Shown: piece by piece, positions 37,848 to 57,700 of the stretch
How positions within the stretch are numbered: the stretch's first letter is position 1
Layout of the letters: each line of letters starts with the position of its first letter
Assembly (NCBI GenBank): GCA_002633005.1
Contig: NMRA01000073.1
Coordinates: forward strand, 1-64,000
DNA: 64,000 nt
From: Phoronis australis
Taxonomy: Eukaryota > Animalia > Phoronida
Direction of reading: 5' to 3'
The notes under the pieces: model-generated
Seen by the model: the letters and a program-made list of their open reading frames with translations, nothing else
Database searches by the model: none
What the model was told of the DNA's origin: nothing
Position numbers and translations under genes: made by a program

Positions 37848-38730
37848 CTTGGCACGCCCCACCGTAGGTGGTTTCCCGCGGCGTGGCCTGCTCTTGCACC
37901 ACGTGCGTTTTACCCGCGTGTCCGGAATAGCCATGTCCATGGGAAGAGCAAACTGACTTGTAATGATTTGGTTTACCGTATTTGAAGCAAGTAATGCCCC
38001 TAGCGGGACATTTCCGTCTGTCCTTACAAAATTTTCCACAGCCCCAGCACGATCCTGGGCCTGCAGGCTTAGCCGAACGAGATTTTGTAAATCTACTTGC
38101 CTGTGGATGTGGTCCTGTCTGTGGGCATTGCCCCCGTTTGTCTTTTATTTTGTTAGTGTCCACCGGAAGCGTCCCCATGGCCTGGGCTTGCAAGGTCACG
38201 GATTCCTGTGTACGTCCGTATGTAAGCAGTCCCTGCAAGGTAATGTTCGGTTCCGTGAGTCCTTTGTTGCGCACCTTGTCCAAACGCGACTTTTGAATCA
38301 GCTGGGATTTGATTTCCCGATCCATGTCTGCAAACTCACAGTATTTAGCAAGGGTACGCAGCCGTGCATAAAACATATCCAACGTTTCCGATGCATCCTG
38401 CGTCGCTTGTCGGAACTGAAACACCTCATGTTCCGTGTTGCGCTTCGGTGCGAAATAATCCGACAGCTTAGTCTGCAAGTCCTGATATGTTTCGTCTGCT
38501 ACCGTAGGTAGCGAATCGTTTATCGCAAACACATCGTCGCCCGCATAATGGAGAAGCGTAGCTTTCTTACGCGGTTCCTGCGTGATGTTTTTCGCCACCA
38601 GAAAATTGTCCAGCCGTTTCAGCCAAAGTTCCCAACGTGTGCTGGCTGATTCACTGGGTTGAACAGCAAACGGTCTCAACGTTAATTCATCCACCGTAAT
38701 CGTGATGTGAAAACCTCCTGAAACTCGCAC
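37848..38730 (-). CDS. Retrotransposon gag-like ORF with degenerate double zinc knuckle
   Basis: RWELWLKRLDNFLVA..KKATLLHYAG..LSDYFAPKRN..FRQATQ..ETLDMFYARLRTLAKYCEF; CWGCG..CPARGITCFKYGKPNHYKSVC (C to Y change in knuckle 2). Confidence 0.85.
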
Positions 38731-39719: not shown

Positions 39720-42700
39720 GTATGTGAATTAGCAATGTTCTTAAGTAGCGTACGCTTTTATTAATTGCAATGTTATTTTCATTTGATTCTGTACTGCCAT
39801 CGCTTTTGCTGCAAAACTAAAGTTGACAGCCGCCATTGCAAATCTAGCTTGGTAATTTCTAGGCAACGAAGACCCCACCGTCGGACCAATTTTGAATTTT
39901 GGAAATACATCTTATGTCGCTTTTCTCGTTTATGCGTTAATAAATCTGACACTGCTAACGTAGACTACTGTTTCAGGTCGCAATGCCAAATAAATATGCA
40001 TTGCCATTATTATCAGATGCATTTGCATGTGGATGGTAGGGTTGATTTGCCAACTGATGTGGAAATGGTTAGTTAACATTGTTCCACCCTGACCGGGAGG
40101 TCCCTACGGAGCTTGGTTGGCAGTCCTCATGGGTATCTAAGCAGTGGATAGTTATTGCCATGAGCTGACAATAACTTTGAGTAAAAAGCCCTACAAGTTA
40201 GATTCACAATAAATTGTGTCCTTTCTGATATTCTTTGATGCTTTACTCTTAAATTGAATTAATTATGAGTGCAATTTACTTGGCCACATGTTCAAAATCG
40301 TCCATCGACAGCCACATTTTCTTAAAGCCAAGTGCAGAACTTTTTTGGTCAGGTGACCTATAAGTTGCAAATAAGTAACTTAGATCTTTTTCTGTGGCAT
40401 AACTCATCCTTGTCTGTTGTTCCAGAATAACATCTACAGGTGGTGCTGGTGCAGCCCGTGCAGCAATGACTGAACCAAGACGAAGATTGGCTAAAACTAA
40501 GAACACTGTGGATAGTGAAGATGCTGCAAGTATTGGAAGTGGCGTGCGTGATGGACGGCCAAATAACTGGGTAATTAGTTTATAATCATGTATTTCCGAT
40601 TGCTTGTAAAGTCTGATATATTGTTAGGTTGTAAGTGAACCAAGTATCCAGTCATACCATCTACACATACTTTGGCACGGAAATCAAGGTCAAGGTGGGT
40701 GAATTGAAATGTATCCCTTTTGAAAATAATCATAAAAATTAGTGCTTATTTGACATTTTTATGTTTTCCACACAGTCGTTTGTAGCTGTAGCATCTCTCA
40801 CTGTTTGTCTGACAGGGCGGAAGTTGTTGCCTAGGCTATAGTATGCTGTATGTGCCATTATACGTGACCTGATTAGAAATATTCTACATGGGAGATCTTT
40901 TGCATTGTGAAAGCACAAAAGTGACTTGTTTGACCCAATTACTGGTGGTCAAAGTGGGCAGAGTTAACAAAGACGAAAGGGCATTGGTCATCATTTTAAC
41001 ACCCCAACATTTTTTAGGGTAATAATGTTTTTCAACAAAATGATAGAAATTAACAACTAAAGTAAGGAAAGAATCTTCACATTCACTCTTCCCAGCTCTG
41101 TTTGACTTACATTTACACTGAATGACTTATATTTACACTGAAAGACTTGTATTTACATTGGATGTGTGTCGCTCTCAAAAAACGTCATGTCGGTGTGATT
41201 CTCTTGCTTATGTGTTTTTTCCATATATTGACAATATCACGTACATTCCAACATAAAACAATGGGGATTTGATGGCATGGTGCTATGAAATTAAAAAAAA
41301 GCTTTGAAATTCCACCAAGTTTCATGTAGATTATAAGGGACGTTGCATGTTTGGGAACAAAATACTGTTGAACATCTCACAACCATATCAGAAAATAGCT
41401 ATTACAATCTGTTTTTGTCAGTTGAGATGTACCGAAGGCAAGTGCACGATACTGTAAACTAGGGAAATGAGACAGGAATATTAACAATCAAGTTGTGCAA
41501 GAATAATTCTGTACTTTTTGAGTTGGAATGAAGATTGGTTACAGTGATTAGGTCCTTGTTAAGATTAAATATTACTCTGTCTACTGTTTAGTTTGCTTCC
41601 CTGAGTGTGACATAAGGTTGTAGTATTGAGTATCAATGTTTGCTCATTAATTATTGATGAATGCTCTTGAATAGGTTCAAAGGGCTTCTGCAAAACTTGT
41701 TGTTACCTTTGTTAACTAATTCATTCACAAGCTGAGTGACTGGGTCAGGGGTGAGTAAAAATCTGTCTGTACAAATAAATTAGATATTATCATGGTGTGT
41801 TTGAGTAAAGTTCAGCTTGATTGCTTGTAAATTTTAATATTGCATTTTAAGGACTTCTCCGACTGGAAACCCAGCTCTGTGTTTGATGAGCGGGTGAAGA
41901 AAGGAAACCAGGAACGCGAGAAAGAACAGTCGTTGTCGCTGGAGTCGACGCCAACACAGGAAAATAAACACAGGACGCCACACACGTTCCCACGGACAAA
42001 GTTCACGGCGAATACCCCCACATCACAGAGGATAGCCTTAGAGAATCTTCGGCAACAGCTGTTGTTCAGCGGGGATGAGGTAAGCATTTAACCTTGCTGC
42101 TAGAATCTAATAAACTACTTGCAGGTTTCCAAAGTTAGTGAAAAAGTGGGACAGAATTGCCATCTTGTTGCATAACTTCGCATAAGGTCTCCAGCTCTGC
42201 ACGTGGGAAATAATCATGGTGTCTAGCAAACCTCTGGCAAATTCTCACCCTGCAATAACAGGATAGCACCATGACACCTAGGGAAGTGGGACAAAAATCC
42301 TCCATGTTTCTTACAGTGAAAAAACCTATAAGAAAGAATGTTGTTTGTGCAAATTGCGATGGTATTGGCGATTCAGTGTGCACAAATAATGAGCCAGTTG
42401 GCGTAGGTGGTTACTGCTGTTGACATTAATGATTAGTCTATGCAAGTTATTGGTGTGACGGTTATGATGTCCATAACATTTGTGTCCTGTTTTCAGGCGA
42501 CAAGCACGGATGGTGAGCTAACTAATGGCATCAACATCCCCGTCATTCGCGAGGGTGAACCCAATAATGAGCGTAATGTGCCTGTGGTGCGTGGCATGCC
42601 TGCTAATTATCAACGACAGGACACCAGCAGTGGGGGCGAGGATGGCCAACAGGTGGCAGAGGATGGGGTAACTGTTAGGTCACATTTTTATCCCAAAAGT

Positions 42701-45700
42701 AGACTTTTGTGTCTGTAGCAACTACTATTGTGTTACCCAATACTGTACTTGGTATCAGTCGTCTCGTTTTTCATAGTTCAGATAGGTTGGTTTTTTGTTG
42801 AGTGCGAACACATTTATGGCTGATAAAACCATATAAATGACTGTAACATTTAAGAAATGTCAGCTAACTGTCAAAATAGTGAAATGAACAAAAGTATATA
42901 AAGTATTCTGCAAGTCGGTATTCAATAGTCAACTTTAGTGTTGACTGAAGCTCTATCAATAAACAGTGTTGGTTGGACATCTATGGGTTTCGCTCTCATT
43001 TCAGCCGGATAGTAACCAGATTGTGGGCCGCCTGATGCAGATTCGCGACTACCTGAAGCAGGCTACAGTCATGTTAGACAACCTGAGTATGTCGCCAGAG
43101 TCGGTAAGTAACAGTGTTAGAACTATAGAACTGTGTTGTATAAAACATGAAAAACTGTTGTTCTCTTCGTATTATTGCTGGATACTTGTATTCCTGATTG
43201 GCTGAAACACCGTATGATGAATTCTGATATTCCATAATATTGACCAACCTGGATGTGGAATATCACTTTTCGTTACTGCTGACCAGACGTCAAATATTGT
43301 TATTCGTGATCTGACCTATGACATGCTGTAGAACCATAAATAACCTGACCATGTAGTGAGCGCGGACAATGGCAGTACATCACAGCAGGTACAAACTAAG
43401 AAGCTAATCTCATGAGATTAAAAACTTGAGGAAAGAAGTACCAGTGGTTGTATAATAAGAAATATAGACTGATTCCTTGGTCAGTGATCAACCTAATATC
43501 ACCCTCGGATCAGTCCATATTTCTATTCTGTTGCGCCTCCATGTCATCTTCATTATTACTGATTCTTCAGTCATTTCCAACTACAGTTATCATTAACATG
43601 TGACTCAGTGTACAACTGTCATTGGTGTAGCTATAAGGTTACTTGTTTATGTTTGTATCATAGCTGATGAAGTGTATCAACCATTTTAGCTTCAAGGCAG
43701 CTCCCACTTGTGGCTCATCCTTCTCAACACAATTGCCACAGCTGTGTGTTGATTTTTTGTGTTACTGTGAAACTCAAAATTGCCAGCTATGATTCCCATC
43801 CCCTGAATAAACAGAGCAACTGGTGTTATCTTAATATTCATTTTAGGATGGCAATCAGAGGCTCAGAGATCTGATGAAAGTCATTTCTAATCTGCGCACA
43901 CAGGAGCACTACTATCTGAACTTGCTTTCTCGCATTGCGGTCAGTTTTGTTGTTTTGGTTTTGTTTATTGCTGATTGCATTCTGTTTTGTTGTTGTGTTT
44001 GTGTTCATGTTGTGTTCTGTAACATTTACAGCCTGAGAGTCGTGAACAAATGAACAAGCTGACGAGGCTGATCGAACACCTGCGTGATCAAGAGAAGGGC
44101 TACATGGAACTTTTGCAGAAGATGCTGGTGGGTGTAAGCTGTCTCACAGCTCCTGCTTATGAGAACGTATTCAAAAGTTTTCATTTTATGTGTGGCATGG
44201 GCTAATCATAACATTGATGACTAAGTCAAGATGGGCTTAAATATCGCAATGATGTGAATTTGTTTGTAGCATCACAGTGGCCCCTAACAACGCCCCAACA
44301 AACTGTATTCCTCATTTCAAATCAACTACCACATCCGCTCTGTTATAAGTCCATGGGCCATTGGGAGCCCTAAACATTGGGTCGGGGTTATATTTGGGTT
44401 TTCTTATGTCGCACATTAGTGTTAAATCTCACTGGCTTGTGCATTTGTGTAAAAGACGGTGGTCTTTAATTGTACACTTGTTTGTAAGCCCATTGGCTAG
44501 TACTGCACATTGGGTGCATAAGCTGATGGACATACATTGGCCCATGGACGTGCTGCACGCTAATATGGTGAATGTGCCCTGTTGGGATGTGCTTTTTCTA
44601 GGCAGCTTTGTGCTAACCTGCTTATCAACAAGGCACACGTGAGAGAATTCCATTTAACATGGACTTGAAGGTGAAAGAGGGTGACCTTGTTCCCGAGCAA
44701 TTGGTTTTGTGAGAATGATCCAAAAGGCTAATATCAGTGGGTGGCTTTGTACCAGAGGGGATACAGCACGTAGACCTTCCAAAACTTGACTGTGCAGTAA
44801 GAGTGCATGTTGTTGAACATTTTTCTGAGTCTTTTGTCATCTTGTAGGCTATGAGAGATGAAACACTGCTAGTGATGGAGAACTCTGGCGAATCCAGCAA
44901 CTCCAAGTCTGTAGCTGAGAGTGTGTCTATTGACATTGACGGACGGTCGGACATTTCTGAGGCCACCACTGTAAGTAGAGTAAATTTAAACTTCATTTGT
45001 ACTGGGTATGTGAATAGAAAATTTGCCCAAACAGTTTGTAATGAAGGGATATCTGTTTAAAGTTCTTTGCAGTTAAAATGTCAGGGTAAGCTGAAACTGT
45101 TGAGGTAGCAGTTTTTCATGTCTGGTGTTATACTTTGAGTGAAGTCATAGAAATTAATTCAGTTTGGGCAATTGTTTCTCTGCAGTAAACCTTTTTGATT
45201 CAGCTTAGATAATAGTTTGAGAGTGACTGCTGTAGTTGCATGGTTGGTGATATCTGTTTACAAATATCAGTTGTTCTGCTTTGGCTACGATAGGCATGGT
45301 TTTTGTTCTTGTTCTTCACTGAAGGGGGGGGGTAAATACTAAAGAGTGTATTCCTGTGTCAGCTATGGCAGGAACGAGATAGAAGATTCACTAGTTAGGG
45401 ACAAACTCACAATGGTCAACATCTTTTTGTACACACAAAGTTTTGTTTTTTCCAAAGGATCGCTCAATAAATATCCGCACGCGGCCAAAAATCGAGAGCC
45501 ACATGGGTTTCTATAGTGACACAGACGGCGAGGTGCCCACTAGCGCGCGCTCCAACCTCTCTCAAATATCCGAGACCAGTAATAACTCATTTTCGGAGAC
45601 ACTGAGGTTCGAGTCGCCCACTCAGCTGAGCCGAGATCTTGTCAAGGGAACCTCTACCTCAACTGCTACCAACAGTGTTGCTACTACAAACGAGGTTAGA

Positions 45701-48700
45701 TCACACTTCACGCGTGATCATGAGTAGCGGGGTGATTTTTACTGACATCGTCCGATGACCAGTTTTGAGTCAAGATAGTGGGCCACTGCAGGGCAGGAGC
45801 ACATTTTCCCAATTTAACCTGCAATTGTATAACATTTAATCTTGTGTAGCTTGCTTGATTGATATAATATTCCACATTGACCTTGTCTTTGCCGTGACGA
45901 AGGAGGATTTAAAAAATTACTACTGATTGTCGATATTTTCGTCCTGCGTCAAATCCGCTATATTGTGGCTTCTTCGTCCATTAAGATAAGGCACGCGTTG
46001 GGTTTTCTATTTGGCATAACTTTCTCCCCATTTTTGTGTGCATGTAGCCTTCTCGTCACTCCCAACTCATGCCTGCTTCTCACGTACTTTGACATTATTG
46101 TGGAGTCTAGTCTGCGATTGCAGTAAAAGTCACCCCGAATACACGGCACACGTGGGTTGTTTTATTATCCATTCTTAAGTCTCCGATCACTCTCTTTTAT
46201 CTCTCTCTGTGTTTTGACCCGCACTCAAGCCAGACTGTGTGGCCTGCCGGTTTGTACTGTTTACATGACCATACTGTGTCTACTGTTGTTGGGTGACTCT
46301 TGCTGCAGCCATGTTCGTACGTTGTGTGTTGCTCTGTGTTTCTCTAACCTGCTTGTTCTCATTGACTGTTGGACGGATCTTTGGAATATGACCAGCTACT
46401 GTTACACTACACAAGCCTAGGCTTGTTGTGCATCAATACACTCTCCCAGGATCAGCAGTTAAACATTCTAGACTAGGTCACAGTTGTTCAGATTTTTTGT
46501 ATTAGTGTTTAAGTTTCTTAATTGTAAAAAGTAGACTGGTTTGCGACTTACTCTTTGTGGGTTGTGGAGCTGAGTTTCGTTGTGACATGTTACTCTTGAG
46601 CCTTAGTGCTTTTTCGACAGTATAGTAAAGGTTGTTTCTGTGTGTTGACTTTCATCTGTGCTTTCGTTTAGTATTAACCTGTTATGTATCTTGTGCGTGT
46701 GGCTTTGAAATAACTCTTTTGTCTTGTGCCGTGTGGTGAACCTGTTCTTGCTTTCAGGTAGACATTTTGTATTCTGCTCGCTTATTTAGTTGTTAAAATA
46801 GACTCATTAAAAGAATTTCTCATTTTCAGTCTGAGAAGAATGAACTGCAGGGCTTGCGCACTCAGCATGAACTACTGACGAAGATGTTGGCACAGCAGAA
46901 ACAGGTTAGTCTTGCTGTGAAAGGAGTGGCTTCACTTAATCGAGTCGAGGTCAAAATTAACATCATCGAGCTAGGATTTCTTAAAGTTTGTATTGGCTGA
47001 TTTGGCCACAGAAGTAATTGGTGAGTTCCACCTGATTCATGGTGGATTAGTGTGAAATTAAGAAGCTGACATCTACATTGCTTTACGTGTTTTTTAATGG
47101 TTTGTAAATATGACTCTGCATTTGCTGGTTAAGGTTTTAGTAACTTTGTGTACTGATCTATTTAAGCCTTTGTGCAGTAACTTATATTTCACAAATTAAT
47201 ATCAATAATGCAATTTCAGAAAATTTACTTCGCTATAAATTTAAAAGTTTTGTGAATAAACCTTTTACTTTCTTGATCAGAAATTTTCAATATTTGCAGC
47301 ACAGCAAATTCTGTGCTTGGTGTACAGATAGAGACAGTCTGACTGTGTCTCGTTGATTACTGCTTATCTTGAGGGCCCTCTTGGAAAGCAGTGCTATCAC
47401 TGAAGAGGCCACCCTCATTTTAAATATCACAATAATAAATAAATAAATATGGTCGAGTTGTAATCCCCTGACTCGAGTCCCTTTGTTTGTAGCTGAAGGC
47501 TCTTCAGGAGAGACAGGCTGAACTTCTTCAACTTCAAAGGAATGCTGAGCAGAGATTGGTGGACAGAACAGCAGAGTTGAATGAGGGTGAGTTAGCGGCG
47601 ACACATTTTCGAACTGCTTTGACAAAGTAAATTAGGCTTTAGGAAAGTTAGGAGTATTAATAGTGATTTTATTATTGTTACTTTGTCTACTGCTGTTTTT
47701 AAGTGGTTGCTGTTTAATCACTATTTCTTGTCAATCTTTGCATCATACTTTTAATTACCATACCAAGATTTGACATTTTAAAATGTGCATGAAATTGCCC
47801 ATAGCTTTTGAACGTTTTTCCAATGTCATCACTACTAAGACTGCTGCACCCCAATTGTATTTATTCAGGACTTTTAACTCTTCCTCTTAATGCATAATTT
47901 TTTCGTGCTTATTTGACACTGGCTATCATTAAGCAACTATTGTATGTAATTTATGTTGTTCAAAGCAAGATGGAGAAATTGACTCTTTATACGTCAAATT
48001 GTTCTTACCAGAATTGCATTTCTTGTGTTTTTAGCATGTCTTGAAAAGTAACTCAAATGAAAACTATTTATCATGTTATGAAGTAGCATTTGTACCACTT
48101 TAATTTGTGACTAGAGCACTTTATTAGTCCAGTTTTTTTGAAACATAACCATGTGTTGTGTTGTTTAGCTCGGGAAGCTGCAGAAAGCTACAAGGAGGTT
48201 GCTGACCACTATAGAGAGGCATCAGAGATGTCACAGACTGCGCAGTCAGACACAGAGGGTACACTTACTGATAATGAGGTAGTGCCGCAGGAGTTGAAAG
48301 ACTTGAGGAAACGACTCGCTTTCCTCAGAAATATCTATGCTGCTGACACACAGGTGAGCCTATTGCCTGTGCATCACTGGTGGATGTTAAGAGTTAGGTG
48401 ACTACTTTCAGTAAGATAGAATGCTTTTTTGTGAATTCAGTTGCAAGCTAAGCTGTAGCAATTAACTAGTGCTTGATTTTTACATTTTGTTCTGTTTTTT
48501 TTTATTTGCTGGATTATGTGGCCACTGCAGATGCTGGTGTATTTGGTCATGGCCATCAATAGTCTTTCTGTAGAAGTGATTGTTTCAGGCATGGAAGACC
48601 GTACTCTTAGTGGCTTTAGTGGTAGGTGTAAAGTGTTTTGAAATGAAAGCAAGTTGAACGTTTTTGTCAAGTCTCCTCGTGGGGGGGGGATCAACAAATG

Positions 48701-51700
48701 GTCCCCGACTTTACAACCACTTGCCCGGACTTCAAAACTAGTCGGCTAGACTGCAAATCAAATGGCCGGTGATCAAACGTGTTGACCGGACTTCCTCAGA
48801 GACTCGCTTTGAATGTCTCAATGGATGCAAGTGACATCTAGTGTTTATTGTTCGTACCCATTTGTTTTGTTCATCATTGACGATTTGTTTGGCCATTGTG
48901 TTTGAGCACTGGCCAACCAATTTTTTTCTGGTTTTGAGGTACCGGCCAACCTGTTTTGAGGTCCGACCACCAAGTTAGAACACCGGCCATGGGGTTTTGT
49001 AGTCTAGCCAGCTGGTTTTGAAGTCTGGGCAAGTGGTTAAGGACTTGGAATTTTCCTCTTTTAAGAATATAAATCGGTAAATAAAACAACAAGAATGGAT
49101 CAACTGAAATTTGAAATTTTCGGAGGTAACAACTTCCTTTATCAACAAAAACAGAAATAAAGTAAAATCAAACACGAAATGACAATTGACATATAAGATA
49201 TGGTGTAATGAAAATGATACATTTTTGCGTAAAAAATTCAATGACATATTTTAAGTTTTTATGTTCAATCCATGAGGTTCTATTGTATTCAGTTTGTCTA
49301 TCCAATATTGTTCTCTTTTAAGTCTGTGAGGGGTACTGGGGTGTTGGAGTTTTTCTATTATTTGTACAGAAAGATCTTGAATATTATGGTTTTTGGAATT
49401 GAAATGATTACCTACAGTATCAGAAATGTTTTTATGTATTATGTTAAATCTATGATTACGAAACCGAGTTTGTAGATTATGTTGAGTTTGTCCTACGTAT
49501 TGGATAGAACATTTTTTACAAGTTATAANAGGTGACTACTTTCAGTGAGATAGAATGCTTTTTTGTGAATTCAGTTGCAAGCTAAGCTGTAGGAATTTAC
49601 ATTTTGTTCTGTTTTTTTTATTTGCTGGATTATGTGGCCACTGCAGATGCTGGTGTATTTGGTTAGAGTCACGGCCATCAATAGTCTTTCTGTAGAAGTG
49701 ATTGTTTCAGACATGGAATACCGTACTCTTAGTGGCTTTAGTGGTAGGTGTAAAGTGTTTTGAAGTGAAAGCAAGTTGAACGTTTTTGTCAAGTCTCCNC
49801 TTCAAAACCAGTCGGCTGGACTGCAAATCAAATGGCCGGTGATCAATTGTGTTGGCCAGACTTCCTCAGAGACTCACTTTGAATGTCTCAATGGATGCAA
49901 GTGACATCTAGTGTTTATTGTTCGTACCCATTTGTTTTGTTCAACATTGACGATTTGTTTGGCCATTGTGTTTGAGCACTGGCCAACCAATTTTTTTCTG
50001 GAATTTTCTTCTTTTAAGAGGATGTCCTCCTTTTGTGGTTTTGATTTCCTCTTATTTTATTTCCAGTTTACTCTTTTTTTGTCTCTTTTTTATCATTATT
50101 GTGACTTTATTCATGCGAAAACAAATTTTTTCAATTAAATTATACAACACAAAAAATATTTGTATCACAGAACCCTATTAATTTGTGGAACGATATATCA
50201 CCTGGAAAATTTTCCTCTTTTTTGTCATTGGTCATTCCAAGCCCTGGTGGTTTTGAACGACCAATTGTTGATTCCCCCTTGCTCATAGTCCATTCGTTTT
50301 TCTTGTAGTCGGAGTCTATGAATCAGTCAGTGGATGAAGGTAACACCAGTACCATGGAGTCTGAGCAGTCATTCGCGGCGGCGGAGCGTGCTGAGTTGAA
50401 GGACAAATTGAGAGACCTTCAAACCAAGAAGGCGCGCATGGATGACCTGCTGCAGGAACTACAGAGTCTGCGCACACAGCGGTATCAGCAGCTTCATAAT
50501 GGTAGGTGCATCTGACTTTTGTGGCAATTCCTTTCATCAGAGTTTGTCACTTAAAAGTGTAATAATGCAATGGGGTGAACTGTCACTTTCGTGTGCAATG
50601 GTTTGTAAATCTGTGCATTGTCCAAATGATCCAATATTACAAGTTGCAGTAAATGTCAATTATTTGGAGAACTGAAATACTCATGGCCTAGTTCCGTGTA
50701 ATACATACTCTTTGAAATGGCAATTATCATAGTTTGTACTTTGGCTGATCCATTCATCATTTTTTGTGTTTTCTCTGTAGACCTTGATGGTGACAAAGAC
50801 AGTACAACGTCATCTCAGCGGCGAATCAGTGAGTCGATTGCGGCCACGGCTTCGGCCAATCAGACGGCAGACACAGCCAATGAGGTTTTGGAAGTTCTGG
50901 ATGCCAAGTCAAAGATGAAGTAAGCTTGTAATGTGATACTCATTCAGTAGCATTGGAGCTGGGATTTTACTTGAAGCCACTATAAACCTGGCTGCGTGTC
51001 TTTGATACTAAAACAGTGCTTTGGAACTGGTTTTCTACAGAGTCGTTCTCACTAAATTTGTCTTTATTTTTTGTGACATATCCGATATCACCATCTACAC
51101 TAGTCTTGTGGTTGTACTGTTAGTTATCAATGCACCCACATATTGTGCTGTCATCCCTGTTTGTCCGTCTGGCGTCCGCTGCTCTATCTCCTAAACCCTT
51201 CTATTTATATGAAATTTTGCACACCTGTTCCTGGAGGGGATGGCATGAGCGAACTTTCAGACAGATCCCACTACCGGTGTGCCCCCTAGTGGCAATTTTA
51301 GTGTTTACATCTGTATCTTAAAAGGTCCTCTACAGATTCCAATAAAATTTGGTAGATAGGCATTTGTCAGTGAGATCATGCTATTCCTCCGTTTTTGGTT
51401 GGATTTGAAGTATTTTGCGCCACATAGTAGCCATTTTTACTGTTTTCCATTTTTTTGGCATCCGCCCACTATCAACCAAACCATTCTAAGGATAATTGTG
51501 AAAATTAGACTTTATGTTGCTACTGTTAATAGGACAGCTGGTGATGATTTTCTTATTGTGGTGCCTGTTAGTGCAGTGTGTTTTTCTGCTAAACCCTCTG
51601 CAGGATCTTTATTATATTTAGCAAGTGTATTTATAACAAGTTGCATTGCTCTTGTTTTTGTTGTTACAAAAACACAAGATTTTGTTTCATTGGACTATTC

Positions 51701-54700
51701 CTACGTTGGATTTTACAATTGTATGAAGGGAGATAATTTCTGGTGTGGGAAGTGAAACAAAATTGCAGATGGGCTGTTAATTTGTGAACAGGTCAAACAG
51801 TTTTTTAAGTCATCTTCACAGCTTCAATGTGACATTAAAACATAAATTTTTGGAAGCGTCTTATAGATATTGATGAGCTTTCATGATTATTTATTAAGAT
51901 CAACACTGCTGTTTATGTAAAGATTGTTTTGTATGTTAATCAAATTGTGTCAATGCCAATTCCTCACTTTGTTTACAGGAAACTACAGGAAGTGCGCAAC
52001 CGTCTAAGTCAGTTACGTGACCTGGTGCAGTACTACCAGAGTGGCACAGAGTTCATCCATGCTGACGGTGAAGAACAGTCATCCTTGCCGGCTTACAGTG
52101 ACTATGAGGACCCAGATCTCATGAGGAACCTGAGGTGGGCTAGCACCTTCAAGTTAAATTATCTTATGTGGACTTTTCTGTCTTTCTTGAAACGGGTGCT
52201 GTTTGTGTAGTGTTTCTGTCTCCACTGTCACGGTTATGTAGAACCCCAGAAAATTGTCCAAAGTTGTTGAACTCAAGAACATCACATCTCAGNNNNNNNN
52301 NNNNNNNNNNNNNNNNNNNNNNNNNNNNNNNNNNNNNNNNNNNNNNNNNNNNNNNNNNNNNNNNNNNNNNNNNNNNNNNNNNNNNNNNNNNNNNNNNNNN
52401 NNNNNNNNNNNNNNNNNNNNNNNNNNNNNNNNNNNNNNNNNNNNNNNNNNNNNNNNNNNNNNNNNNNNNNNNNNNNNNNNNNNNNNNNNNNNNNNNNNNN
52501 NNNNNNNNNNNNNNNNNNNNNNNNNNNNNNNNNNNNCCCTTCTATTTATATGAAATTTTGCACACCTTTTCCTTTCATGGAGGGGATGGCATGAGCGAAC
52601 TTTCAGACAGATCCCACTACCGGTGTGCCCCTAGTGGCAATTTTAGTGTTTACATCTGTATCTTAAAAGCTCCTCAACAGATTCCAATAAAATTTGGTAG
52701 ATATGCATTTGTCAGTGAGATCATGCTATCCCTACATTTTCAGTTGGATTTGAAGTATTTTGCGCCACCTAGTGGCCATTTTTACTGTTTTCCATTTTTT
52801 TGGCATCCGCCCACTTTCAACCAAACCATTCTAAGGATAATTGTGAAAATTAGACTTTGTGTTGCTACTGTTAATAGGACGGCTGGTGATCATTTTCTTA
52901 TTGTGCAGTGTGTTTTTCTGCTAAACCCTCTGCAGGATCTTCATTATATTTAGCAAGTGTACTTATATCAAGTTGACAACGGACGATGATGAATTTCGGA
53001 CAGATCCGATGATTGATGTGCCCCCTAGTAGATATTCAACTTTTTCTTTTGCTCTGCAGGATCTTTGTTAAACTTGGCAAGTGTATTTTCATGAAGGTGA
53101 CAACAAGTGACGATGACTTTCGGACAGATCCAACAACTGGTGTGGCCCCTAATTGCAATTTCATTTTTTTCTGGTTTCCTCTGTATCTTTGGACTTTCTA
53201 GGCGGATTTTTATGAAATTTGGAAAATAGAGGTGATGACATCTTTCTGTTTTCAGATGGATTTGACTTTGCACACGCTTTCTAGTAGCTGTTTTTATTAT
53301 TTTTGAGCTTGTTTTTGGTGTCCGCCTCTCTGTCAGCCAAACCACTCTTAGGATCATTAGGAACATTGATATATATCTTCTTGTTGGGAAGAGGACATGT
53401 GACGATGATTTTTGGACAGCGCCGACTACTGTGGCGCCTCCTTGTGGCAGTTTTCTTTTTGTTGCGTCCATGGCTGTATCTCTTAAATCTTTTGTCATAG
53501 ATTTTTGCTAAATTTGGCAATTGTATTTATGTGAAAGTGACAACAGGTGACTGTATTTATATGAAAGTGACTACAGGTGACGACGACTTTTGGATGGATC
53601 CAGTAACTGCTGTGCCCCCTAGTGATAATTCTATATTTCCCGTCTTCTATATCTTTGGTGCTTGGACGGATTTTTATGAAATTTGGTAAATAGATTTCTA
53701 TTAAAGAAGCTATTGCATCTTTCCATTTTCAGATGGATTTGATGTAGTGCACGTCGCCTAGTTTTTAATGTTTTTTAGTCTGTTTTTAGCGTCTGCCTGT
53801 GTGTTGGCCAAACCACTCTTGCGATCATTACGAAAATTGACATAAATCTTCTTACTGTGAATAGGACGTGTCACGGTGATTTTTTGACAGCGCTGACTAT
53901 TGTGACGTCTCCCAGTGGCAGTTCTGTTTTCATTGTGCCCATGACTGTCTCTTATAAACCCTCTACAGGTTCGTTAAATTTGGCAAATGTATTTGTATGA
54001 GGGTGACAAGGGATGACAACGACGTTTGGATGGATCCGACTCCTGCTGTACCCCCTTGTGGCAATTTTACTCTGTTTTCCTCTGTATCTCTGGAGTTCCT
54101 TGTTAAGTTTTTATGAAATTTGGCAAGTAGGTTTCCATTAATGAGGCGGTGACACCTTTTTGTTTTGAGATGACTTTGACATAGTGTATGCCTCCTAGTG
54201 GCTGTGTTTTTATCATCTTAGTCTGATTTTGTCGTCTATCTCTCCATCGATCAAAGCATTAAGAATTAGTGTTCCTAGTGGGAAAAGTATCGTTGACAAT
54301 TTTTGGACAATTTGACTTCTGTGGTGTTTCCTATTGACCTATCGCCAGGATTTTGAGTGACGGCTTAACTGACCATTAAGAACGCAGCATTAATGACACA
54401 CCTTGGTTTCCAGGATGCCATTTTACCTGACCAACAACACGTTGCCGGGTAAAACTTTTTGTTTGTTAGTCGACTTTACGCAAGGGGGCTGAGCTTGCGA
54501 TAGGTCAATGGGCAGATTGCTTTCTTTGTGTCTGCAGCTGTTTCTCCCTGCTGGATCTTTGTGAAATTGACAATGGTATTTCTATGAACATGACAACAGA
54601 TGACGACGTGTGGACATATTTCACTTCCATTGTGCCCCCAGTGCCAATTTTAATTTTTTACACTCTTGGCAGGTGCGTTCATATTGAGGAGAGCATTGGT

Positions 54701-57700
54701 GACTTGCTCTGTGCCCCTAGAGGCTATTTTAAGTTTACTAGCTCCATCTAGTGGGAATGTTTAAAATAGTATTCATCACTTGTATCTGCGCTATGAGGTG
54801 CACACGGTGAGTGCATAGCAACGCTCTGCATTGCTCTTGTTTTTGTTGTACAAAAACACAAGATTTTGTTTCATTGGACTATTCCTACGTTGGATTTTAC
54901 AATTGTATGAAGGGAGATAATTTCTGGTGTGGGAAGTGAAACAAAATTGCAGATGGGCTGTTAATTTGTGAACAGGTCAAACAGAAATGAAAGTTGCCAA
55001 AATATTGTCAAAGCAGTAACAATTTTTTTACTTTCTTTTTTTAAGTCATCTTCACAGCTTCAATGTGACAATTTTTGGAAGCGTCTTATAGATATTGATC
55101 AGCTTTCATGATTATTTATTAAGATCAACACTGCTGTTTATGTGAAGATTGTTTGTATGTGAATCAAATTGTGTCAATGCCAATTCCTCACTTTGTTTAC
55201 AGGAAACTACAGGAAGTGCGCAACCGTCTAAGTCAGTTACGTGACCTGGTGCAGTACTACCAGAGTGGCACAGAGTTCATCCATGCTGACGGTGAAGAAC
55301 AGTCATCCTTGCCGGCTTACAGTGACTATGAGGACCCAGATCTCATGAGGAACCTGAGGTGGGCTAGCACCTTCAAGTTAAATTATCTTATGTGGACTTT
55401 TCTGTCTTTCTTGAAATGGGTGCTGTTTGTGTAGTGTTTCTGTCTCCACTGTCACGGTTATGTAGAACCCTAGAAAATTGTCCAAAGTTGTTGAACTCAA
55501 GAACATCACATCTCAGAAGTGTCCAATTGGATACATGTGCATACTATGTTTGAGGCACTGTTTTTCAAAACACTATGATTATCAATTGTTTTTGAATGTT
55601 CCACTTTTGGCTGATGGACTATCACAAGAGAAAACTCAATGAACTTTAATAAAAGACTCAAAAGTTCCATACAAGTATAATAACAAAATGATGATTTAGA
55701 TTGAAATGAGTTTTTTGAGATTTCATCTTGAACAACTATATGAAACGAAATTTATGTCAAATGAAATTTAATATTAATACATCAAACGAAATCTATGTCA
55801 AATGAAATTTATGTCAAACAAAATTTAGCCATGTAATTAACTCCGTTGTTTTTGCAATGTATATACCTTTATTTTTTGACTATAGTAAATTTTACTAGAA
55901 AAACATGGGTCATATGACCCAATTAATGGTTGGTAAAAAGTCTATTTCTACAGGTGCTCTACTTGCAGAAAATATGTACTTTTACCGAGTTAATATCTAC
56001 AATTTTGTAAGTATTCAGTTAAAGACACTCAAAATTGTGTATAAGGTGCTACAGAACATTCATAGCCTTGATTTAAAAAAAGAAAATGGAGATGTGGTCG
56101 CAGTGCCTTTAGAATATTCTAAGGTATTACTTATGATGGATGGAGACTCAAAGCACATGGTGGTGGTGTACATTACTGAACATTGATGTGTGCCAAAGTG
56201 AGCTCAAAGTATTGTTTTGTGAAGGTTAGTCACGACTTTAGTATTTATCCTGTGTTTGTTTTATTTATTTGTTCAGAGAGATGCAGGGTAAAGGAAGCGT
56301 GGCTGCCAAACTGCAGGAGTACGCCCAGCGCCAGGGACCGTTGACCCAGGAGGAAGAACAGAGTATGGTGTCTGAGCAGAGTGAGGCGGATACCGAGGGT
56401 GACACGACGGAAACGGAGTCTCATCTCAGCAGTAACCTGGGCGCCCTCGGTGACGACCCCGAGATACAGGAGAAAGTCAGGTGAGTGTCTGTGTGTTTGG
56501 TGACTGGGTCTGACTGCGTGTGTCTGAGTGTGAGTACAAAGTCTAGCGTGGTGTGTCAGTCGAGTGTTTGTAGACGTGGTCTGACTAGCTGAGTGAGTGG
56601 AGTGTGTGGACTGGGTGTGTCAGATGAGTGTCTGATTAGGCAATAGTCATATATAATGGGCCCACACTTTGAGAACCAGTTTGATGCCTGTTATCCAATA
56701 GAGAAAAACTTGTTCTCAAAATATGGACACTTTATATCTGACTGTTACCTTCTGAGTGTGAGTACGGAGTCTGACTGGGTGTGAAGAAATAACAATTATC
56801 TGTAAGTTCCTGTTACAAATAGGGCGGCCATTTTTATCCTTAGAGTGATCATCTCATTCTTCATGCTTCCATCAAACCAAGGGTCTCTTTCTCGACTTAT
56901 GTCATTTTGATTTTAGGCATAAGTAAAAATGTAACTATGAATTGCCAAATATGCTTTCTTGTCTTTTGTGTTTATTGAAATGTTTTTTCTTCGGTCTAGT
57001 GGATCTGACTATGGATTTCTGATTTCGAAGTTGTAGATAGTTTTTCTGACTTTCACAAAAACAGGCTAAGCTATCTGTAGCTGAAAGTCAAAATGCAAAA
57101 GCTAATAGGTTCTTGGAGGAACAGGCCCGTGGAGGCGTCGTTTACCAAAGCTGTAGTTGTCTGTCAGGTGTTGATTTGCTGCTTTTGTATGGGTGCCTTA
57201 AAAATAACAGTGAAGGTATCAAAACTGCTGATGTCAAACTTAGTTTGTGCGCCAGTAGAAAAGTAAAAGTTACCACATAACAAGAATTTCAATTGTGAGA
57301 CCCGTTTGTTCACCAGGAAACTGCGTGCGGCCAAAGAAAAACTCAAACGTCTGCAGGAGCTGGTAGCTATGGTACAGCAGTCACCGGACGCTGCCAGAGT
57401 CCTGCCAGATGATCTGGCTGAGCTAGCTGCCAGTATGGACGATGGTGACACCACGTCACAGGCTACAGCCACATCTGACAAGGTACCAGGCTTTAATGTA
57501 CCTTCGGGAGATTCCATAACAGACAGGTGAGTTTGAAGGTTAGGTGTTGTTTTATCGATTTCTGTGACTTTAGTGGTGAAGACATAAGAATTGATACGGT
57601 GACTAAAATTAGCGTGTTGCCATTTCTAAGCTCTCCATAGTTAAATACTTCTTTTGTGTACATATCACTAATGCCATGCACAAGACATAAGTTTCTATTT

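Follow-up and report, generated by a model that had tools for sequence, protein, structure and literature searches.

Diverged Tandem Exons in the PCM1 Gene of Phoronis australis, Apparently Used One at a Time, May Exchange a Helix of a Predicted N-Terminal Hairpin

RESULTS AND DISCUSSION

A tandem exon pair in PCM1

The DNA analyzed here, referred to below as the window, is the first 64,000 nucleotides of contig NMRA01000073.1 of the phoronid Phoronis australis. Protein similarity identifies the gene that hosts the exon pair as a lophotrochozoan PCM1, which encodes the scaffold of granules that assist cilium assembly. Similarity to named PCM1 proteins is colinear, as is expected of an orthologue, and Lingula PCM1 is 85% identical over 54 amino acids to one exon of the window gene. 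A 23-exon model that includes exon 6b is open over 1,361 codons with no stops. In a protein tree this model falls among the lophotrochozoans, with the shortest path to Lingula and Owenia and with no starred clade. The window ends before the 3′ end of the gene; relatives carry a C-terminal PF15717 domain. When the window exon at 41855 to 42079 was used as a homologue query, it had no match among 40 candidates, and a search of the ESM Atlas with 6b returned unnamed matches only, at 0.77.

The exon numbers 5, 6, and 7 are those of an earlier, sequence-only reading of the window, which had proposed that two neighboring exons are mutually exclusive alternatives. All features are on the forward strand. 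Exon 5 (43005 to 43103; 99 nt, phase 0-0) has junction reads on both sides, is kept in relatives, and is predicted to form helix 1 of an N-terminal hairpin (helix 3-30 in models of relatives). The upstream duplicate, exon 6a (43847 to 43939; 93 nt, 31 amino acids, phase 0-0), was the minor form in these samples, and the downstream duplicate, exon 6b (44032 to 44127; 96 nt, 32 amino acids, phase 0-0), was the major form. They are separated by a U/UG-rich spacer intron of 92 nt (43940 to 44031), and both are joined to a common downstream exon 7 (44848 to 44970; 123 nt). The coordinates, AG and GT splice sites, lengths, spacing, phases, and open frames given for the pair in the sequence-only reading were all confirmed. 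As in known mutually exclusive pairs, the two exons are neighbors of similar length, in the same frame, and alike in sequence.

Other features of the locus were recorded alongside the pair. A 237-nt in-frame PCM1 cassette exon at 45458 to 45694 was skipped, with exon 7 joined to 46830, in 13 + 4 reads, and its inclusion is seen in 1 + 3 reads for the 5′ joint and 5 + 3 reads for the 3′ joint; models from Lingula (X7/X8) and some from shark, mussel, and lizard also differ just after exon 7. The exon at 51979 to 52134 occurs again, together with its flanks, on the other side of an N gap (51196 to 52292 versus 52537 to 55516, in pieces 92 to 99% identical), a duplication that is probably an uncollapsed haplotype rather than a second exon pair, and 48396 to 48931 is likewise repeated at 49530 to 50001. 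On the minus strand, an open frame of ∼190 codons (38151 to 38720) that resembles an LTR-retrotransposon gag adjoins an N gap.

Exons 6a and 6b are diverged paralogues

When the two peptides were anchored at their right ends, 9 of 31 residues were identical. Their local BLOSUM62 score of 51 was reached by none of 20,000 shuffles (mean, 19; maximum, 49). When 2,848 segments from the six-frame translation of the window were compared, 6a and 6b were each other's best non-self matches, and the next-best segments scored 36 for 6b and 43 for 6a. DNA identity at the three codon positions was 12, 20, and 8 of 31, highest at second positions, which indicates that the protein pattern was held while third positions drifted, as under protein-level constraint. 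BLASTP gave no alignment of 6a with 6b, so in absolute terms they resemble each other only weakly. By these sequence comparisons the two exons are real paralogues. The core L, L, QE, Y, and L residues are intact in the 6a exon of the window.

Junction reads in P. australis

The RNA data consisted of three raw runs of one study (X1 to X3), of each of which ∼18 to 19% was covered, and one contig set (X4). A joint was reported only if it had at least three reads in one run, a threshold beneath which up to four reads joining 6a to 6b could remain hidden. The main form was exon 5 to 6b to exon 7. Exon 5 was joined to 6b (43103-44032) in 19 reads that bridge 6a (9 in X1 and 10 in X2), and 6b was joined to exon 7 in 29 reads (13 in X1, 14 in X2, and 2 in X3). 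Splicing of 6a to exon 7 (43939-44848) also exists, with five reads that bridge 6b (one in X1 and four in X2). At this threshold and coverage, no joint was reported in X1 to X3 from exon 5 to 6a (43103-43847), from 6a to 6b (43939-44032), or from exon 5 to exon 7, each having fewer than three reads per run. X3 had three reads in the region and none on 6a.

Published junction rules for mutually exclusive exons are three in number, as described in PMC5740500. The reads that bridge 6a from exon 5 to 6b and those that bridge 6b from 6a to exon 7 satisfy two of them outright; on the third, that no joint connects the two copies, the runs listed no 6a-to-6b joint above the reporting threshold. The junction reads, at low 6a counts, support the either-or use that had been proposed; its exon 5-to-6a joint is absent from the listed joints. 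Read depth bears on that step. In 35-nt bins, depth rose at the 6a acceptor from 2.06 to 4.54 in X1 and from 2.09 to 4.63 in X2; roughly half of the 6a reads therefore start at the acceptor, and the other half or so enter unspliced from intron 5. The step suggests that exon 5 is spliced to 6a in this species, as it is in a spliced contig from a relative. Within the spacer, depth was 0 at 43952 to 43986 in all runs.

An alternative is that 6a and 6b are tandem cassettes, included singly or together to yield three proteins (a, b, and a plus b), with exclusion being a bias. The hidden reads that the threshold allows would accommodate such a form. However, in this species splicing from 6a passes over the neighboring 6b acceptor, which is heavily used. 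Were 6b included independently at 0.8 to 0.9, the 6a donor should mostly join 6b, and five 6a-to-7 reads beside four or fewer hidden 6a-to-6b reads would have P ≤ 0.02 (P ≤ 0.0003 beside zero). This alternative is taken up again below with the protein models of relatives.

Transcription from intron 5 into exon 6a

The unspliced reads on 6a come from a defined part of intron 5. Sense-strand coverage, ∼10 reads per run, begins at ∼43235 to 43250, beside a piece of dispersed repeat (43190 to 43271, limits approximate, forward strand) that is marked by opposite-strand reads and by diverged loose ends at 43226 to 43271. The repeat contains a reversed CCAAT at 43197 to 43201, and the sense reads begin just downstream. 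By read depth, sense reads run from there unspliced into 6a (43235 to 43846, forward strand), with a depth from ∼43250 on of 1 to 4 in X1 and 0 to 6 in X2. The X4 contig spans 43776 to 43940. Upstream of the in-frame ATG at 43874, the stretch from 43240 contains twelve other ATGs. Retention of the whole of intron 5 was rejected, since depth was 0 at 43112 to 43181 in all runs and no read ran over the end. The RNA resembles less a retained intron than the product of an internal start or a long 5′ extension, and a repeat-derived internal promoter (43190 to 43846) is possible.

These observations bear on a second alternative, which we consider very unlikely: that 6a is decaying or sidelined here and is found mainly in RNA that starts in intron 5 by the repeat and passes through 6a to exon 7, such RNA being poorly translated or giving a PCM1 without helix 1. 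The sense reads that extend from ∼43235 to the 6a acceptor, with none at 43112 to 43181, fit this explanation, as does the start of the X4 contig 71 nt upstream of that acceptor. So do the lack of an exon 5-to-6a joint at threshold, two amino-acid-changing read variants in 6a (43851 G>A and one in the last codon), the long branch of 6a in the exon tree, and the fact that the nearest relatives (L008 to L011) are without 6a. Against it, both runs show a twofold increase in depth in the bin beginning at the acceptor; the length, phase, splice sites, and core residues of 6a are intact; and relatives splice exon 5 to 6a to exon 7, both in contig L001 and in isoform models.

The exon pair in genomic contigs of relatives

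Metagenome contigs were scanned, and 12 host loci (L001 to L012) were examined. Exon 5, a 93-nt phase-0 6a, and 6b occur in order in 4 of the 12 (L002, L005, L007, and L012), so that the conserved position and phase sought for 6a are found in four contigs. L001 is a spliced contig that reads exon 5 to 6a to exon 7. Four loci (L008 to L011) have 6b only, with no a-like exon in the intron; their best a-like scores were −11 or lower, or there was no candidate, compared with 26 to 50 where 6a is present. L003, L004, and L006 had no exon 6 match, and L003 and L004 end within 300 nt.

L001, L002, and L012 group with the annelid Paralvinella (100/99), L005 groups with the venerid clam Mercenaria (99/95), and L008 and L011 group weakly with the window (82/86). 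The tree gave no placement for L007. The a copy of L007 (1817 to 1909) has the lowest score (26) and is missing several core residues while keeping the 93-nt length, the frame, and a GTCAGT donor; it may be decaying.

Both exons of the window pair are intact, and the pair is kept in relatives in the same order and phase. The proposal of mutually exclusive use had been staked on 6a being either spliced into RNA or conserved and on 6a and 6b not always being included together. The reads include 6a, relatives conserve it, and the exons are not always joined.

Exon 6 types in protein models of relatives

Protein isoforms were typed by the segment between exons 5 and 7. They are annotation models, taken without view of their read support, and the absence of a type refers to models and not to genomes. 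Among 195 proteins of at least 1,000 amino acids, 145 were of type b, 23 were of type a, 15 had both segments, 1 had neither, and 11 lacked exon 5 (among them 2 that are not PCM1).

Some lineages have the two types only as alternatives. The 11 full-length models of Haliotis (abalone) comprise 3 a-only and 8 b-only models, the 7 of Lineus (ribbon worm) comprise 1 a and 6 b, and among those listed for Mytilus edulis (mussel), 1 of 7 is a; none of these models has both. Type a occurs alone in single representatives (Gigantopelta, Mercenaria, and one ENA protein pair). Type b alone was found in Lingula (8/8), Aplysia (6/6), Liolophura (7/7), Owenia (one model), and a Magallana cluster (15/15 among the matches listed, of 44). 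Deuterostomes also had b only (hemichordates, 35/35, and shark, 11/11, among those listed; amphioxus, 7/7; lizard, 2/2), and the shark and lizard proteins bear out the earlier suggestion that 6b matches the single vertebrate segment. In cephalopods, all proteins with exon 5 are a-type (4/4 in an Octopus cluster, Argonauta, and other clusters), which suggests, at the level of these proteins, that cephalopods lost or silenced the copy most used by other animals. The cephalopod or cephalopod-like proteins with a only are P0165, P0167 to P0170, P0198 to P0203, and P0207.

The two exons are joined in 15 models from three species. These are 8 of 10 models in Tubulanus (plus 1 a-only and 1 b-only), 5 of 10 in Dreissena (plus 1 a-only, 1 b-only, 2 with a shortened a, and 1 without exon 5), and 2 of 3 in Sinanodonta. 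In the shortened Dreissena models, P0213 and P0218, a second acceptor inside the a exon leaves just its last 6 residues. Exclusion is therefore not universal among relatives. The both-exon models speak for the tandem-cassette explanation introduced above, as does the a-plus-b product being in frame. They are annotation models, however, and the lack of any such model in Haliotis, M. edulis, and Lineus weighs against it, as does the behavior of the 6a donor in the window species. We consider it unlikely that tandem cassettes account for the pair, and we prefer one-at-a-time use. Across lineages, the same exon pair appears to range from exclusive use through joint inclusion to fixation of one copy or the other.

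Origin of the duplication

An exon tree was built from 37 segments and 31 columns, drawn from lophotrochozoans and deuterostomes. The 14 a-type segments lie on one side, and the 23 b-type segments, all deuterostome rows included, lie on the other (89/90, not starred). The upstream position of the a copy is established for the window, Tubulanus, Dreissena, Sinanodonta, and the four contigs; the other a labels were assigned by likeness. At column 12, 12 of 14 a segments have V and 22 of 23 b segments have L; at column 11, 13 of 14 a segments have Q, a residue missing from those listed for b. A further a-type mark is K/R at column 5. The 6a exon of the window has the V and R marks without the Q. 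It has the longest branch in the tree (1.82), its nearest segment is the Tubulanus a copy (39%), and its score against the b set (40.2) exceeds that against the a set (31.8), which also holds for the a copies of Tubulanus and Lineus.

The earlier suggestion that the duplication is old gained support from relatives in three more phyla. A matching pair is present in molluscs and ribbon worms and likely in annelids as well. The simplest reading of these sequences is one early lophotrochozoan duplication, followed by faster change in a and scattered losses; an older origin of the pair, with subsequent loss in deuterostomes, is possible. Several independent duplications, with a copies that resemble each other by convergence or long-branch attraction, seem improbable to us. 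The alignment has only 31 columns, AU tests do not reject separate duplications under species- or phylum-specific constraints (p = 0.106, 0.107, and 0.099), and b-only lineages (Lingula, Magallana, Aplysia, Liolophura, and Owenia, and L008 to L011 at the DNA level) would fit such a history. On the other side, order, 93-nt length, and phase are identical in 5 of 5 genomic pairs (the window and four contigs), the donor hexamer GTCAGT is common to 4 of the 5, the Q-V and K/R columns are shared, and all a copies are joined in the best tree. This alternative is about origin, and either-or splicing could hold under it as well.

How exclusion may work

The 92-nt spacer is the shortest of 24 inter-exon gaps examined (the next is 148 nt). 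The early CTGAT motif and U-rich spacer pointed out in the sequence-only reading are both present: 57% of the spacer is U, 85 nt before the acceptor are without AG, and the motif places a candidate early branch-point A at 43974, +35 from the 6a donor. A TTCAT motif offers a candidate A in the normal position (44007, +68, 25 nt from the acceptor), which counts toward joint inclusion of the two exons. A limit of ∼50 nt between branch point and donor is given in PMC5740500 and PMC7969005. We give about even odds to a steric block by the putative branch point at +35 in this species; candidate protein regulators on the UG-rich tract are an alternative.

A conserved steric mechanism was rejected as the general or ancestral rule. 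Three of the relatives have spacers of 286, 447, and 412 to 424 nt, and the fourth has an 89-nt spacer with a 14-nt AG-free zone. A long AG-free pyrimidine tract is not conserved (85 nt in the window; 46, 14, 68, and 49 nt in L002, L005, L007, and L012, respectively). With longer spacers or short AG-free zones in the relatives, the steric layout is not conserved.

Two other means of enforcement were also rejected. The exon lengths, 93 and 96 nt, are both multiples of three, so the a-plus-b product stays in frame and a frameshift with nonsense-mediated decay would not arise. Incompatibility of U2 and U12 sites does not apply to the donors GTAAGT, GTCAGT, and GTGGGT, none of which, we presume, resembles the U12 donor consensus.

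A predicted hairpin whose second helix is probably exchanged

AlphaFold2 models of exon 5 plus exon 6 were built from sequences of relatives. The b form (Haliotis; pLDDT, 92.7; 13 rows) and the a form (Gigantopelta; pLDDT, 89.4; 6 mixed rows) were each modeled as two helices, with exon 6 predicted to be helix 2 of an antiparallel N-terminal hairpin with exon 5. The sequence-only reading had described two alternative N-terminal coiled coils; the helical character holds in both models, and the models replace the free-standing coil with the second helix of a hairpin. A Foldseek search with the b-form model found no match at E ≤ 0.001, and the weak matches were generic antiparallel hairpins (Rop and HR1b). 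Prediction of a two-copy complex of the hairpin gave a score of 0.12 and a mark of 0.32. Core L, L, QE, and L positions are kept in both copies and other positions differ by type, a pattern that suggests the same fold with an altered surface.

Exon 5 begins at residue 201 or 202 in shark and lizard PCM1, numbering from which its start appears to match the start of the human self-association region (residues 201 to 494; bioRxiv 10.1101/2025.07.27.666075). A second self-association region, rather than 201 to 494, is described there as the main driver of granules. Mouse PCM1 lacking residues 1 to 600 loses Mib1 and Cep72 binding and rescue of ciliation, according to PMC4858382.

Proposed function and significance

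Taken together, we assign a probability of roughly 0.7 to the reading that 6a and 6b are diverged copies, each joined to exon 7, that arose in one early lophotrochozoan duplication and are used one at a time, swapping helix 2 of the predicted hairpin. Either exon, used singly, would exchange the predicted second helix, and one gene would then likely yield two scaffolds that differ in one predicted helix. In this species, exclusion may be helped by the candidate branch point near the 6a donor. The choice between 6a and 6b could be regulated by tissue or stage, and the exchange could change self-association of the hairpin or the binding of partners such as Mib1 or Cep72. A broader scenario is doubtful: that a regulated splice switch, in the hairpin opening the first PCM1 region for self-association and Mib1/Cep72 binding, predates the split of molluscs, annelids, and nemerteans, has been retained in lophotrochozoans, and makes two kinds of satellite by cell type, with coleoids having fixed a and vertebrates having b only.

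PCM1 has been described as the one protein essential for centriolar satellites, and the regulation of its self-association and choice of clients as open (both in bioRxiv 10.1101/2025.07.27.666075). Survival of the exchanged helix in four phyla likely marks a small folded module in the mostly disordered PCM1 as a control point, and the natural b, a, and a-plus-b variants are ready-made test material for PCM1-null cells. The splicing principle of duplicated mutually exclusive exons is itself well known, and public isoform models already contain the PCM1 case implicitly. No description of the PCM1 exon pair was found among titles and opening lines of abstracts on PCM1 splicing or lophotrochozoan exclusive exons. 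The main text of PMC5740500 does not contain "PCM1," and the tables of mutually exclusive exons that it offers cover human genes only; no PCM1 isoform was found in passages of PMC11853192.

Comparison with known systems

The closest mechanistic parallel is OGDH exons 4a and 4b, as presented in PMC7969005, which are likewise tandem duplicated in-frame exons with a short spacer. The OGDH branch point lies 25 to 41 nt from the upstream donor, compared with the candidate 35 nt in PCM1, both below 50 nt, and a U-rich AG-free tract after the branch point is common to the two. In contrast to OGDH, the PCM1 branch point is a motif only, with a rival motif in the normal position within the 92-nt spacer, and relatives do not share the layout, with both-exon models in some of them. 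Alpha-tropomyosin is another mutually exclusive pair of the steric type, cited in PMC4165533.

Vertebrate PCM1 (see also PMC12094185) is the same gene, with the exon 5 region apparently inside residues 1 to 600; unlike the window gene, it has the b-type segment only in shark and lizard models. Like known ancient duplicated exons, the PCM1 pair has been kept across protostome phyla with lineage-specific losses. It differs from them in belonging to the gene of a centriolar-satellite scaffold, in being one pair only, and in that coleoid cephalopods appear to use only the other copy.
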